The translations under genes were made by a program, and so were the position numbers. A DNA stretch of 53,870 bases, taken from positions 1 through 53,870 of the forward strand of contig JANXEV010000004.1 in assembly GCA_025057985.1 (NCBI GenBank), in the 5' to 3' direction. Source of the stretch: Candidatus Aenigmatarchaeota archaeon. Lineage in GTDB: Archaea; Aenigmatarchaeota; Aenigmatarchaeia; CG10238-14; SpSt-28. Below, one piece after another: positions 6,852 through 49,046 of the stretch (its first letter is position 1; each line of letters begins with the position of its first letter). The notes below the pieces were generated by a model that worked only from the letters and a program-made list of their open reading frames with translations, was not told the DNA's origin and did no database searches.

Positions 6852-6910
6852 ATCGCCGGTAGCCAGACATTCCAAATCGTCATTCGAGTTTAAGACTCGT
6901 CTGGCCGCCC
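6852..6910 (-). other. 16S intron 6 (59 nt, after E. coli-equivalent 1501), BHB
   Basis: CGCC/GGCG helix, bulges ACG and ATA, inner stem GGCGGCCAGAC/GTCTGGCTACC; splicing gives AAGTCGCCAC+AAGGTAGCC. Confidence 0.85.
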
Positions 6911-6981
6911 GTGGCGACTTAGCCCCCCTCGCGAAGTTCCCACTCGACCTTTCGGCCTCGAGGGAACTTCACTCGGTTGGC

Positions 6982-7018
<37 letters not shown>

Positions 7019-7027
7019 GGCGAACGC

Positions 7028-7115
7028 TTTCATGTCGATCGGAAGATCATAATTATTTCGTTCCTCATTCTTTGATTCGAAGTGGTGCATGTAAATCATT
7101 TGCTTCCGATCAACA
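7028..7115 (-). ncRNA. 16S intron 5 (88 nt, after E. coli-equivalent 1363), canonical BHB, box C/D-like guide RNA
   Basis: TCAT/ATGA helix, bulges CAT and AAG, 12-bp inner stem, 8-bp outer stem; interior ATGATTT-12 nt-TCGA...ATGAGGA-11 nt-ATGA. Confidence 0.92.
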
Positions 7116-7381
7116 TGATGACGTCCGCCTACTAGGGATTCCGGCTTCACGAGGGTGAGTTACAACCCTCGATCCGAACTGGGCGCGCTTTTAGGGGATT
7201 GGCTTCCCCTTTCGGGGTTGCATCCCTTTGTAGCGCGCATTGTGACGCGCGTGTGGCCCAGGGCTTTCGGGGCATACGGACCTACCGTCGCCCCCTCCTT
7301 CCTCCCACTTATCGCGGGCAGTCCCCCATGAGTGCCTACCTTATTAAATAAGGTAGTAGCAACATGGGGTGAGGGTCTCGC

Positions 7382-7413
7382 TTCAACCCCGACCAGATAG
7401 ATTCTGGTCGAGT
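7382..7413 (-). other. 16S intron 4 (32 nt hairpin, after E. coli-equivalent 1105)
   Basis: 10-bp stem CTCGACCAGA/TCTGGTCGGG; helix TAAC/GTTG forms once intron 3 is removed; final product GTCGGTTAACGAGCGAGACCC matches the archaeal consensus spacing. Confidence 0.85.
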
Positions 7414-7416
7414 TCG

Positions 7417-7479
7417 ATGGTCTCGCTAAGCCTCGAATAAAAAGTTTCATTCTTCCAAAAATTTTGATGGCTTAGCGAT
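7417..7479 (-). other. 16S intron 3 (63 nt, after E. coli-equivalent 1102), BHB
   Basis: GGTT/GACC helix, bulges AAA and ATC, perfect 10-bp inner stem TCGCTAAGCC/GGCTTAGCGA. Confidence 0.88.
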
Positions 7480-7777
7480 TTAACCGACTTAACGGCACGC
7501 CTCACGGTACGAGCTGACGATGGCCATGCACCACCTCTCGGCTCGTCTGGTAAGGTCTTCAGCCTGACCTTCATCCTGCCGTCGGCCCTGGTAAGGTTCT
7601 CGGGGTTGAGTCCAATTGAACCGCACGTCCCACCCCTTGTGTGCTCCCCCGCCAATTCCCTTAAGTTTCACCCTTGCGGGCGTACTCCCCAGGTGGCCCG
7701 CTTAACACCTACGCTCCGCCACTGCAAGCTCCCGAAGAGCTTGCAACAGCAAGCGGGCATCGTTTACAGCTAGGACT

Positions 7778-7918
<141 letters not shown>

Positions 7919-7993
7919 CCCTCACCGTCAGACCCGCTCCAGGTAGCCGCCTTCGCCACTGGTGGTCCGCATGGGATTACAGGATTTAACCCC

Positions 7994-8024
7994 TTAGGGT
8001 GAATAGTGCACACACACTATTCAT
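7994..8024 (-). other. 16S intron 1 (31 nt hairpin, after E. coli-equivalent 687), BHB
   Basis: GGGG/CCCT helix, bulges TAA and AAG, 9-bp stem TGAATAGTG/CACTATTCA; splicing restores GGGGTAGGGGTTAAATCC. Confidence 0.9.
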
Positions 8025-8653
8025 TACCCCATGCGTACCGCTACCCTCTCTCGGTCTCAAGTCTGACAGTATCCCTGGCGCGCCCTGCAGTTTACTACAG
8101 GATTTCACCAGGGACTTATCAGACCGGCTACGGGCGCTTTAGACCCAATAATCGTGACCACCACTTGGAGCGCGGGTATTACCGCGGTGGCTGGCACCCG
8201 TCTTACCCACTCCTTCCTCGCTCTCCTGTTTATAGAGAGCAACAGTCCGTGCAGAGCACGGACACTCCGGGTCCCCTCGTCGGGCGTTAGCCCATTGCGA
8301 AGGTTTCGCGCCTGCTGCGGCCCGTAGGCCCTGGACTCATGTTTCAGAGTCCATCTCCGGGCTCCCACTCTCATGGCCCGTAGGCGTTATCGGCTTGTCG
8401 GGCCATTACCCCGACAACAACCTGATACCCCACAGTCCCATTCTGGGGCGACTACGAACGTCCTTTCGGTGTAAGGACCTTCCAGTACCTTACACCTATA
8501 GGGTATTAGCCCCAGTTTCCCGGGATTATCCCCTTCCCCAGAGTAGGTTGACTGTGTATTACGGAGCAGGACGCCGAGGGCTTACCCCTCACGACTCGCA
8601 TGGCTTAGTCGGACCCGGATAGCGGTGGTCTCTGGCGGGATCAGCCAGAATTG

Positions 8654-10570: not shown

Positions 10571-11752
10571 TTACGGAGTAAACCATTCTATTTCATAGTA
10601 TTTATGTTCCGAATCTGGTAAATCGATTCTGTTAGCCAAGTAGTAAGTGATACTGGTTTCTCTGTCATTAATAGCTATCAACAACCTTAAACCTAATTCA
10701 TCAGCTCTATCTAAAGCGCTTGCTAACATCTTCCCACTTAGATTTTCATCTTCGTTTAAAGAAAGTACAAGAAAAGATGGGTCATCTTGATCTGGTCTTT
10801 CAACTTGGCTCCCTGATTTTCTGTGCCAAGCCACGAAGTCTATCGGTGTTTTTTCTTTCAAATAATCTTCTTCCTTCATTCCAGGTATAGCCATTATAAA
10901 AGTTTTTCTTACACTATGCGCTACTCTTATGGCTCTTGACCATTCGCTCATTGGCATACTGACTTCCTTCGGAAATACATGTAACACATGTTTAGAATGC
11001 ACCCATTCTTTTTTGCTCGACACTGGCCTAGCATTAGGAAAATAGACTCTAAAATGAGTTCCAAATTTAAACCCAGTTTTTAGTATAAAGCCTCTGTCTC
11101 TCCAATCTTCATATACCTCTAGAATTCTAGAAAAGTATGGAATTCTTTTCTGTATTTCTTTACAAATCTCTTCAAAAGTTATTTCTGAATCGCTCGAAAG
11201 CTCAATAACCTTAAATCCTTTCTTCGCCAAATAAGCAGTTTCTACTGGATCTAAAGTTAGATTGTTCCCTCTATCCACATTTTTATAGACACCCCATTGA
11301 CCAAACCAATGATTTTCAAACAAACTTCTAGCTTCTTTTCCGAAAGCTAGAGAAAAACATTCCTCTTTCAAAAAATAAATTGTGATCTTTGTGTTGAGGT
11401 TGTAAGTAGAAGAAGGATACTTTTTTATCGGGCTCTTACCAAAATTTTTGAGGCTTATTCTCTCTGGAAAAGTTATGAACAACCCTCTTTCTCTCCAATC
11501 TCTGAAAACGTTGTATTTAACAAAGTAGGACGGCGAGTAAAATCTCTTAAAAATCTGCTGAAGTGGCAACTCTTCATTTTTTTCCAAAACTTTAAGATTC
11601 CTGATGTTGCTAAGATAGAAAAGCTCTATCGGATGTAAGTAAACTTTGTTGTTTTTCTTTTCTCCAAAAAAACTTTGAGATAGCTCTAGGTTTGTAGAAA
11701 AGATTAAATCATTCTTAATGAAAATCTTTGCTTCTTCTTTTTGTGACTTCAT
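10571..11752 (-). CDS. endA: tRNA-splicing endonuclease, three-unit (epsilon2-like) architecture
   Basis: Catalytic unit GFKFGTHFRVY...H...AHSVRK; repeated LHPIE/LDPVE and DWRERG/DWRDRG units; C-terminal non-catalytic unit ending YYEIEWFTP; start taken at the ATGA overlap at 11752. Confidence 0.9.
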   Translation of the reverse strand: MKSQKEEAKIFIKNDLIFSTNLELSQSFFGEKKNNKVYLHPIELFYLSNIRNLKVLEKNEELPLQQIFKRFYSPSYFVKYNVFRDWRERGLFITFPERISLKNFGKSPIKKYPSSTYNLNTKITIYFLKEECFSLAFGKEARSLFENHWFGQWGVYKNVDRGNNLTLDPVETAYLAKKGFKVIELSSDSEITFEEICKEIQKRIPYFSRILEVYEDWRDRGFILKTGFKFGTHFRVYFPNARPVSSKKEWVHSKHVLHVFPKEVSMPMSEWSRAIRVAHSVRKTFIMAIPGMKEEDYLKEKTPIDFVAWHRKSGSQVERPDQDDPSFLVLSLNEDENLSGKMLASALDRADELGLRLLIAINDRETSITYYLANRIDLPDSEHKYYEIEWFTP

Positions 11753-12162
11753 TCTATTTCCCTCAGCGTACATTCTAACGGTGGATAGGTGATTATCTCA
11801 CATATCAAATCAATCGTATCATTCAAAGACGGGTCCTTCATCTCCCTACTTCCTTTTAAACTTTCTACTTTTAAGAAGTCTTCACCTAAGCTGCCGACAT
11901 TATTTCCTATAAGGTAAGCGTCATTTTTTGACACAAAGTATTCCAAATATCTCTTTATTTCGTCTTCAGAAGTATAGTTATAGTATATCAAAGTATAACC
12001 ATCTCTCAACAAAATATCCCTTTGGGCCTCAGAAATTCTGCTTAGCACTTTTTCCTTAGGTAACTCCACTTCAGGAGTTTGGAAGACTAAAGTGTAATTG
12101 TAGGCTATCGAAGACATGAAAAGAATCAATATCAAAATCAAAACCGCAGCTTTCTTCTCCAT
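11749..12162 (-). CDS. Hypothetical membrane-anchored protein
   Basis: Likely start MEKKAAVLILILILF at 12162; the longer ORF-track call overlaps the opposite-strand gene. Confidence 0.65.
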   Translation of the reverse strand: MEKKAAVLILILILFMSSIAYNYTLVFQTPEVELPKEKVLSRISEAQRDILLRDGYTLIYYNYTSEDEIKRYLEYFVSKNDAYLIGNNVGSLGEDFLKVESLKGSREMKDPSLNDTIDLICEIITYPPLECTLREIE

Positions 12163-15864: not shown

Positions 15865-15965
15865 GCCCCCGTAGCTCAGCTTGGATAGAGCGGCACCCTT
15901 CTATCGAGAAGGTTTGAGAAAAGGATGAAAGGTGACGGTCGCGGGTTCAAATCCCGCCGGGGGCG
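15865..15965 (+). tRNA. tRNA-Arg(TCT) with a 26-nt intron at 37/38 (15904-15929)
   Basis: Acceptor GCCCCCG/CGGGGGC, A20 and G73 Arg identity elements, T-arm GCGGG-TTCAAAT-CCCGC; relaxed BHB (CTTC/GATG); no encoded CCA. Confidence 0.88.
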
Positions 15966-47885: not shown

Positions 47886-47976
47886 GCTCCCCTCGTCTAG
47901 TCCGGTCAAGGACACGGCCCTCTCGAGGCCGGAACGCGGGTTCAAATGAAATATTCTGGAAATCCCGCGGGGAGCA
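47886..47976 (+). tRNA. tRNA-Glu(CTC) with a 16-nt T-loop intron at 59/60 (47947-47962)
   Basis: GCTCCCC/GGGGAGC acceptor; CGGCC-CT-CTC-GA-GGCCG; BHB with TTCA/TGGA helix, two AAT bulges and GAA/TTC inner stem. Confidence 0.93.
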
Positions 47977-48017
47977 CTTTTTTCTTTATTAAATATCGAG
48001 TAAATCTAAATATTAGC

Positions 48018-48148
48018 GCGGGGGTCGCCTAGCCTGGTCGATGGCGGCAGATAAAATATAGCTGAAGCTCAGAATTAGCCGAGGCTTAGGTGCTAAGAAG
48101 AAACCTGCTGGGTTAGTCCCTTCGTGGGTTCAAATCCCACCCCCCGCA
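48018..48148 (+). tRNA. tRNA-Leu with introns at 30/31 and 37/38; anticodon CAG or TAG depending on splicing path
   Basis: GCGGGGG/CCCCCGC acceptor, A73, long variable arm, GTGGG-TTCAAAT-CCCAC; candidate exons GCTCAGA (48067-48073) and GCTTAGG (48084-48090). Confidence 0.9.
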
Positions 48149-48210
48149 TTTTTTCTAAACTTTTCAAAAAAGAACGAAATTAAAAAAGAAAGAAAGGGGG
48201 GGATCTGAGT

Positions 48211-48772: not shown

Positions 48773-49046
48773 GCGGGGGCTAGGTCTGGGGGGCTCGGCC
48801 TCCCCTACATCGGCAAATGGTCGACATGGCCGAACCGAAAGCTTCGGGACGGTGTGTCATGCATAGTCACTCCGATTGTTCAACAATGATGCAACGTTCC
48901 CACGGGTACGGTTGCCTACGAATCCCCCAGGACCGGAAGGTAGCAAGGGTAAGTAGTCAACCGTGTGCTGTGGGAGTCACGTTGCTTAGAAGGACAATCG
49001 GGTAAAGTGACTATGTATGACATATCAACTCGAAGCGTGCCCCCGC
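48773..49046 (+). ncRNA. ffs: Archaeal SRP RNA (7S)
   Basis: Terminal helix GCGGGGGC/GCCCCCGC; Alu-like 5' GGCTAGG...GGGGGCTCGGCCTCCCC; helix 8 CCAGGACC-GGAA-GGTAGCA. Confidence 0.93.

Follow-up and report, generated by a model that had tools for sequence, protein, structure and literature searches.

A single tRNA-Leu gene in the archaeal genome G000 carries two anticodon cassettes, CAG and UAG, one behind the other within a single anticodon arm. With a probability of about 0.7, judged from sequence and comparison, this gene gives rise to two isoacceptors by mutually exclusive BHB splicing. The first-pass annotation had proposed cis alternative BHB splicing at this locus. The comparison with relatives supports this proposal, and both comparative tests, on separate genes and on the conservation of both exons, turned out in its favor.

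Gene structure

The window, i.e. the whole stretch of 53,870 nt that was analyzed, is contig C32 of G000, an assembly of 554 kb in 37 contigs with a completeness of 88.8%. Sequencing runs matching the window are hot-spring metagenome DNA, with no RNA run among them. Logan contigs from two runs, which may include the source sample, cover the whole gene with at most one difference. Apparent splice joints in four DNA-contig runs were traced to Leu genes of other organisms and rejected. Near-identical two-cassette genes have also been observed in other Candidatus Aenigmatarchaeota MAGs.

The features of the locus are listed in Table 1. A long variable arm, the discriminator A73 and an anticodon for Leu codons identify a tRNA-Leu. 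The gene has the acceptor stem GCGGGGG/CCCCCGC, a normal T-arm, the long variable arm UGGGUUAGUCCCUUC, an A at 48148 and two Leu anticodons, which assigns it to class II tRNA-Leu with charging as a prediction. Its D-arm is identical to that of three other Leu genes in G000. The gene body is ~80-97% identical to other Leu genes, and orthologues of the gene are 85-97% identical. The 5' exon ends with GCAG (48047-48050), and the 3' exon begins with ACCTGC, of which CCTGC covers 48104-08. The 53 nt that split the anticodon stem contain both cassettes. Each cassette is able to supply G31 and the loop positions 32-37, and each is preceded by its own 3' splice signal. GAAG pairs with nt 32-35 of either cassette. 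Both routes lead to the 5-bp stem GCAGG/CCUGC and the 7-nt loop CU-NAG-R-A with U33, a standard cloverleaf. Intron-less genes of relatives have these arms as well.

Table 1. Coordinates of the features discussed, numbered in the window.
Feature	Position	Strand	Details	Basis
EndA, tRNA splicing endonuclease, three-unit epsilon2 type	10571..11773	-	400 aa	Pfam PF01974, PF02778
A/T-rich box, likely archaeal TATA box	47986..47997	+	tttattaaata, ~25 nt upstream	by eye
tRNA-Leu gene, class II, discriminator A, two anticodon cassettes	48018..48148	+	131 nt	sequence reading
5' exon, tRNA positions 1-30	48018..48050	+	acceptor, D-arm, G26, GCAG of anticodon stem	sequence reading
Docking strand, nt 25-28	48045..48048	+	CGGC, 5' strand of central BHB helix (30/31 intron), then bulge AG^A	relatives
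CAG-route intron	48051..48066	+	16 nt: variable loop, selector 1 GCTG (48061-64), bulge AA	relatives
Cassette 1, anticodon CAG	48067..48073	+	GCTCAGA = G31 C32 U33 C34 A35 G36 A37	relatives
Linker	48074..48083	+	B3 A, TTA (3' strand, long-intron inner helix), selector 2 GCCG (48078-81), bulge AG	covariation
Cassette 2, anticodon UAG	48084..48090	+	GCTTAGG = G31 C32 U33 U34 A35 G36 G37	relatives
UAG-route 37/38 intron	48091..48102	+	12 nt: T, free loop GCTAA, GAAG (48097-100), AA	sequence reading
3' exon	48103..48148	+	A38, CCTGC, variable arm, T-arm, acceptor, A73	sequence reading; Rfam partial match
T run, likely terminator	48149..48154	+	directly past discriminator	by eye

The helices, bulges (AGA, AAG, AGG) and cut sites named in the first-pass annotation were all located at the positions claimed. 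The docking strand CGGC forms three Watson-Crick pairs and one G-U pair with GCTG, and four Watson-Crick pairs with GCCG. TAA (48052-54) pairs with TTA (48075-77), and TTAGC (48075-79) pairs with GCTAA (48092-96). The shared GAAG helix is imperfect, as described, with 2/4 pairs to CTCA and 3/4 to CTTA. The outer cuts, 48050^51 and 48102^03 (the caret marks a cut), are common to both routes. A 17-nt tandem duplication had also been claimed. Its units, 48059-75 and 48076-92, do match in 11 of 17 positions by hand count. Tandem Repeats Finder is silent on them; the repeat is therefore not significant alone.

Standard tools read the locus poorly. ARAGORN in default mode returned no tRNA at the locus, while the intron mode gave the right gene ends with a wrong anticodon, Phe(aaa). 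The Rfam tRNA model matches the 3' 42 nt only (48107-48148, 15.9 bits). A promoter and terminator scan of the region, applying a bacterial consensus to an archaeal host, yielded no site. A second gene for the neighboring tRNA-Glu was not found in the assembly. Apart from the failure of the gene finders, nothing specific speaks for a CAG-only gene, a pseudogene or an assembly artefact, and these explanations are barely credible. A CAG-only gene would leave CUA, used 12.3 times per 1000 codons in G000 (CUG 4.7), with no other UAG gene. Intact acceptor, D, variable and T arms argue against a pseudogene. An artefact would have to recur in 42 independent loci and in the contigs of several runs.

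Splicing enzymes and splice sites

The EndA encoded in the window aligns end to end with PDB 4FZ2 (E 2.2e-86). This structure is the epsilon2 EndA of ARMAN-2, described in excerpts of PMC3488258 as an enzyme of broad specificity, which cuts strict and relaxed BHB motifs. The first-pass annotation had placed EndA at 10571-11752. The endonuclease ORF is present, but it runs to 11773, and 11752 corresponds to the second ATG. RtcB is encoded at G000:C37:4124-5428 (562 bits), so that both EndA and an RtcB-type ligase are available. According to a reading of 44 Rfam hits, ~20 tRNA genes of G000 bear introns, many of them 12-13 nt long.

In a BHB, each 3-nt bulge comes after its strand of the 4-bp central helix, and EndA cuts behind the second bulge base. 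By eye, this rule is self-consistent on the other intron-bearing tRNAs of G000. The 37/38 introns end in two bases preceded by a four-base strand that pairs with nt 32-35 (RAAG-AA^A, by eye); among the genes of G000, this holds for Leu(CAA), Leu(UAA), Trp, Met and Lys(UUU). The 30/31 introns of Leu(UAA) and Lys(UUU) offer GCCG, GCTG or GTCG as the partner strand of nt 25-28, with AA^G or AG^G directly behind it. All four introns of the two routes comply with a BHB of this kind. Intron 48051-83 combines a fully Watson-Crick central helix (4/4) with a 3-bp inner helix, and both co-vary. Intron 48051-66 has three Watson-Crick pairs and a G-U, and intron 48091-102 has three of four pairs. Intron 48074-102, with two of four, is a relaxed motif, yet it equals the Leu(CAA) site of four congeneric genomes.

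Conservation among relatives

Of the 118 genomes in the order, 10 have the two-cassette layout: six of this genus, one of family f3 and three of family f2. A scan designed not to select on this layout demanded the D-arm, GCAG, a spacer of 10-40 nt and the UAG unit only, leaving the CAG cassette free. It detected 34 metagenome loci and 8 GTDB genome loci, together 42 loci with 29 distinct genes. The retention of both exons by relatives, on which the first-pass annotation had staked its reading, is borne out by this CAG-blind scan, as 29/29 distinct genes carry the CAG cassette too. The pieces stand in order within one gene in all 29, unlike those of trans-split or tri-split tRNAs, which lie at separate loci with promoters of their own and complementary leaders.

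Four gene types, A-D, were distinguished. Their intron loops differ at almost every position (ATAAAAA, ACGTTTG, ACAGATCG), the loop of 48051-48066 differs in length and sequence, and the linkers read ATTA, ATG or CTG. The 13-nt block of selector 1, bulge and cassette 1 varies, in 21 distinct arms, at the second bulge base only, besides two changes in type D. Unit 2 varies alike, at the second bulge base, by one compensated selector change and by G37/A37. Each cassette has a single variable position, as is typical of purifying selection on both exons. The chance of a 13-nt block with these properties is ~2 in 10,000 per intron by a rough own estimate, and the layout is beyond chance since relatives share it. 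Part of this apparent conservation may be due to recent transfer or mis-binned contigs, because the dual gene is patchy (five lineages) and G031 and G051 have intron text close to that of this genus.

The UAG route

Covariation provides solid evidence for the UAG route. The alignment comprised 21 distinct anticodon arms, 9 from genomes and 12 from metagenomes, and the test structure CGGC/GCCG with the inner helix TAA/TTA and CUUA/GAAG. This structure is paired in 93% of cells. Its covariation score was 0.245 vs 0.141 for shuffled alignments; none of 500 shuffles scored as high, and slid controls reached 0.122 at most. Three pairs are compensatory: G26-C to A-U (5 arms), U-A to C-G (6) and A-U to G-C (5). 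The latter two belong to the inner helix of the long intron. The docking strand CGGC pairs with GCCG in all 21 arms.

Cassette 2 is invariant in 16 of the 21 arms; the other five, of type B, have A37. The loop of the 12-nt intron drifts freely (GCTAA, GGTAA, GATAA, GTTAA, GCCAA, GTCAA). Leu(UAG) genes of family f2 have similar introns of 12-14 nt. G011 and G013, of the same family as G000, possess intron-less Leu(UAG) genes whose anticodon arm, with G37, and variable arm are identical to those of the UAG-route product.

The CAG route

For the whole CAG-route structure the covariation score was not above shuffles (98/500). CGGC/GCUG is paired in 98.8% of cells with one-sided changes only, and CUCA/GAAG in 57%. 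The inner stem TTAGC/GCTAA, part of the first-pass annotation, did not survive the comparison. It is paired in 86% of cells with one compensatory cell, several relatives have it weakened or disrupted, and it is not selected, since its 3' strand drifts freely.

Use of the CAG route is suggested by four lines of evidence outside covariation: the retention of both cassettes in all 29 genes amid scrambled intron loops, two splice sites shared with paralogues, stand-alone genes of sister genera that match the predicted products, and the lack of any such gene among the finds in this genus. Cassette 1 is invariant in 20 of 21 distinct arms, the remaining arm having U32. It equals the loop of the stand-alone Leu(CAG) genes in G015, G009, G016, G012, G017 and G013. 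Both putative splice sites of the route equal sites which paralogues must use. In Leu(UAA) of G002, the 30/31 intron has to be cut at its 3' end in GCTG-AA^GCT, a 9-mer identical to the selector-1 site. The Leu(CAA) 37/38 site in G006, G005, G001 and G004 consists of GCAGG/CCTGC, CTCA/GAAG and AA^A, as in the CAG route. Computed energies of the competing conformers differ by no more than ~3 kcal/mol (37 C) or ~1.5 kcal/mol (70 C), none being excluded; in these energies the T-stem coordinates are wrong alike in all conformers and the differences alone are usable.

The main rival explanation is a gene for UAG only. The CAG cassette would be part of an intron, kept for structural reasons or by recent spread, and CUG would be read by wobble. 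A structural role is conceivable, as CUGA (selector 1) and UCAG (cassette 1) can form a hairpin, which might shape the 33-nt intron and would explain some of the conserved block. Covariation backs the UAG route alone, the CAG-route inner stem is not kept, and the patchy distribution with near-identical intron text across families fits a spread. Against it, types A, B and C have the 13-nt block in common, although hardly any position of their loops agrees. The hairpin needs no G31, C32 or A37, and the cassette retains the A37 specific to the stand-alone CAG genes of the family. UAG as the only product is therefore considered unlikely, also in view of the gene inventories below.

Stand-alone Leu(CAG) and Leu(UAG) genes

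The first-pass annotation had made its reading depend on the absence of separate genes, and this absence extends over the whole genus g1 of family f1. In its nine genomes, neither a stand-alone UAG (0/9) nor a stand-alone CAG gene (0/9) was found, and six carry the dual gene. The three g1 assemblies in which the dual gene was not found are 83%, 58% and 86% complete. G000 itself contains four Leu-type 3' halves only, and no other CAG or UAG stem-loop in tRNA context was found there. Sister genera g2, g3 and g4 (10 genomes) have both genes, UAG in 10/10 and CAG in 8/10, and the dual gene in 0/10. Stand-alone CAG was not found in the sister-genus genomes G018 and G011 (82% and 89% complete).

The sister-genus Leu(CAG) has another D-arm and was found by a full tRNA inventory of G015 and a DNA search. 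Negatives from D-arm-anchored searches outside family f1 are weak, because the CAG genes of the family have a different D-arm. The CAG genes of G016, G012 and G017 agree with the CAG-route product in G26 and in every base of the anticodon arm, down to A37, and the loop CUCAGAA is common to those of G015, G009 and G013. Since the stand-alone genes match the predicted products, the A37/G37 contrast of the cassettes is that of real CAG vs UAG tRNAs of the family.

Among the dual genomes outside the genus, neither stand-alone gene was found in G029 and G041. G051 has a stand-alone UAG gene, and CAG was not found. G031 has a stand-alone CAG gene, and UAG was not found. G031 is the only dual genome with an altered CAG unit (selector GCTA, U32). 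The tally of stand-alone UAG covers family f1 and the dual genomes. Order-wide, by hand classification, stand-alone CAG is present in 67 of 108 non-dual vs 1 of 10 dual genomes. Over five lineages this contrast is no more than suggestive (~P = 0.07, simple binomial). Many matches to the looser CAG pattern were dropped by hand: those in D-loops of other tRNAs, those in Ser genes with long introns (5 checked), and those that were introns of Leu(UAA) or Leu(CAA) genes. The last group covers 8 genomes of family f5, with one locus, L146, checked. Also removed from the count as false were G043:C4, G090:C7 and a Cys gene (L149).

These numbers bear on the UAG-only explanation in both directions. By the patterns used, ~41/108 non-dual genomes are without a stand-alone CAG gene, as that explanation would allow. 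It requires, however, a loss of CAG in four lineages, each happening to carry the dual gene. Codon use points the same way as the latter argument. By manual reading, G000 possesses C34 tRNAs for all remaining NNG codons with a usage >=4 per 1000, i.e. for Pro, Ala, Thr, Ser, Gly, Val, Gln, Lys, Glu and Arg AGG, and a UAG-only gene would make CUG the exception among comparably used codons. A C34 tRNA for CGG, used 0.3 per 1000, was not found in G000. CAG may still be dispensable, because tRNA-Leu(UAG) could read CUG by wobble.

Proposed mechanism

The choice between both products would be made at the first intron. It is proposed that selectors GCUG and GCCG compete for nt 25-28; behind each lie a bulge of 2 nt and a cassette of 7 nt (G31 to N37). 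If GCCG is paired, EndA would remove 48051-48083 and the UAG cassette would be joined to the stem. The 12-nt intron would be cut next at 37/38, yielding UAG with G37. If GCUG is paired, EndA would remove 48051-48066, and joining of the CAG cassette would complete the anticodon stem. This stem would stack on CUCA/GAAG, and 48074-48102 would therefore be cut out, yielding CAG with A37. RtcB would ligate the exons. LeuRS is predicted to charge both products, because they share the body and A73.

Several properties could set the product ratio. Selector 1 would be transcribed earlier and has the shorter loop, while selector 2 would form the stronger helix; the CUGA/UCAG hairpin could mask selector 1. 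As the choice would depend on competing short helices and this hairpin, temperature or transcription speed could alter the CAG:UAG ratio.

The same elements permit a stepwise removal, in which the CAG intermediate is cut again at GCCG with a second intron of 17 nt, and all transcripts end as UAG. The first cassette would be a nested-intron device and no exon. On paper, CGGC, AG^G, GCCG and AG^G do form a BHB after the first ligation, and the conformers are close in computed energy. The 33-nt intron, however, has a complete co-varying BHB and requires no helper. Stepwise removal also leaves the proper U33, CAG and A37 of the cassette and the missing stand-alone CAG unexplained, and is regarded as very improbable next to mutually exclusive splicing.

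Relation to known systems

Alternative assembly of synonymous anticodons in trans-split tRNAs, which the first-pass annotation had taken as established, is confirmed by excerpts of PMC4390854. Closest to the present gene is the tri-split tRNA-Gly of Caldivirga maquilingensis (Fujishima et al. 2009), whose isoacceptors are put together from a 5' quarter and a 3' half that they have in common. Two alternative anticodon-loop transcripts are joined to them at BHB motifs by EndA and a ligase (excerpts of PMC4390854). As in this system, synonymous anticodon pieces alternate between shared tRNA parts. The tri-split pieces are separate genes joined in trans by complementary leaders, whereas the pieces described here lie in tandem in one 131-nt gene. 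The choice here would be between two 3' splice sites of one transcript, and the tRNA belongs to class II, unlike the tri-split tRNA-Gly. According to the same excerpts, no split or translocatable-intron Leu or Ser tRNA was known at the time of that review (PMC4390854).

Split tRNAs that share a half are tRNA-Glu(CUC)/(UUC) of Nanoarchaeum equitans and tRNA-Ala(CGC)/(UGC) of C. maquilingensis (excerpts of PMC4390854). They resemble the present gene in a constant part, two synonymous anticodons and a genome-reduced or hyperthermophilic archaeal host. As far as the excerpts go, they differ in that two transcripts are trans-spliced with cuts at 37/38 or 29/30, and alternative internal cassettes do not occur. 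Multi-intron tRNA genes, non-canonical BHB motifs and EndA of broad specificity (alpha2beta2, epsilon2) are documented in excerpts of PMC4090602, PMC3488258 and PMC5829648. The present gene shares with them introns at 30/31 and 37/38, a relaxed BHB and an epsilon2 EndA homologous to that of ARMAN-2 (4FZ2). The multi-intron genes described in those excerpts have one exon set and one product each, with no alternative exon.

A functional analogy leads to eukaryotic pre-mRNA. In transcripts of the Dscam type, a docking site pairs with one of several selectors, so that exactly one of the tandem exons is included. The present gene likewise appears to combine tandem duplicated alternative exons, one docking sequence and competing selectors. 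Dscam splicing involves the spliceosome and protein-coding transcripts, whereas here an archaeal endonuclease would recognize the BHB; the likeness is one of function only. No report on cis alternative tRNA splicing was found in the portions of the open-access literature covered.

Implications

Archaeal tRNA introns are regarded as passive, and one gene is equated with one tRNA. To our knowledge, sharing of tRNA parts between isoacceptors is known only in trans, from split and tri-split tRNAs. The gene is rather likely the first case of alternative splicing by BHB and EndA and the first tRNA gene producing two isoacceptors in cis, replacing separate CAG and UAG genes.

If the two-product reading is true, the tRNA sets of such genomes are undercounted, as tRNA finders fail on the locus. 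Dual genes would then account for 'missing' isoacceptors in DPANN genomes. They would also represent a direct intermediate for models of the evolution of split and multi-intron tRNA genes. Protein-only BHB splicing would be capable of regulated or stochastic choices, an archaeal counterpart of alternative splicing.

Variation in the dual gene and related introns

The tRNA-Leu gene with tandem CAG and UAG anticodon cassettes (window 48018-48148) varies among metagenomes and genomes. In type-B dual genes, nt 26 is A, both selectors (the strands pairing with nt 25-28) read GCTG and each cassette has A37. Their T-loop is interrupted by a third intron, about 18 nt long (L014, L042, L043, L046, L054, L059, L064, L071). 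In a single metagenome variant (L053:222-290), GGAG replaces the GAAG that precedes the last cut and pairs with nt 32-35. With this substitution, C34 of the CAG route, otherwise mismatched with A, gains a C-G pair, and the UAG route keeps pairing as U-G.

An intron at position 30/31 also occurs in the source genome's tRNA-Leu(UAA) and tRNA-Lys(UUU) genes, in which nt 25-28 pair with GCCG or GCTG. Across the genus, the Leu(UAA) selector reads GCCG, GCTG or GTCG, and pairing is possible for all three. A 2015 review (PMC4390854) describes class-II tRNAs as lacking any known translocatable intron.

Coordinates of the features (G000, source genome assembly; C, contig)
Feature	Location	Strand	Remark
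EndA, three-unit epsilon2 type	window 10571-11773	-	4FZ2-like, E 2e-86
Archaeal SSU rRNA match	window 6874-8651	-	1778 nt vs 1478-position model
tRNA-Glu(CUC)	window 47886-47976	+	T-loop insert of ~16 nt
Archaeal SRP RNA	window 48773-49046	+	147 bits
tRNA-Leu(UAA)	G000:C11:75774-75908		37/38 intron with stretch complementary to anticodon loop
tRNA-Lys(UUU)	G000:C35:15918-16048		37/38 intron with stretch complementary to anticodon loop
Six further genes with such 37/38 introns	G000:C3:1857-1978, C1:4478-4581, C33:9341-9438, C22:26766-26875, C22:35527-35638; window 15865-15965
tRNA-Ile(UAU)	G000:C35:25448-25540		with intron; by eye

Other genes in the window

The tRNA-Glu(CUC) gene lies directly 5′ of the dual gene and escapes ARAGORN as well as Rfam at gathering score; neither a Glu(UUC) gene nor a second Glu copy was found in the 554-kb assembly. 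The SRP RNA gene follows about 620 nt 3′ of the dual gene. The SSU rRNA match is about 300 nt longer than the model, possibly owing to one or more rRNA introns. The epsilon2-type EndA is here encoded by an Aenigmatarchaeote; a 2018 paper (PMC5829648) names Micrarchaeota as the only group in which this type had been recognised by that time.

Guide-like motifs and decoding

Inspection by eye identified a complement to the gene's own anticodon loop inside the 37/38 introns of Leu(CAA), Leu(UAA), elongator Met, Trp, Ser(UGA), Gln(UUG), Lys(UUU) and Arg(UCU), followed by CTGA or TTGA and then RTGATGA or GTGAAGA. This arrangement looks like the D′/C′ half of a box C/D guide, apparently directed at 2′-O-methylation of nt 34. 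The dual gene lacks this arrangement. In families f3 and f5, five tRNA-Ser genes (L141-L145, from genomes G029, G020, G026 and G034), none detected by ARAGORN, carry 37/38 introns of 40-60 nt that contain complete box C/D-like motifs (GATGA ... CTGA-like). Finally, the presence of a tRNA-Ile(UAU) gene suggests that AUA is decoded without a modified CAU tRNA.
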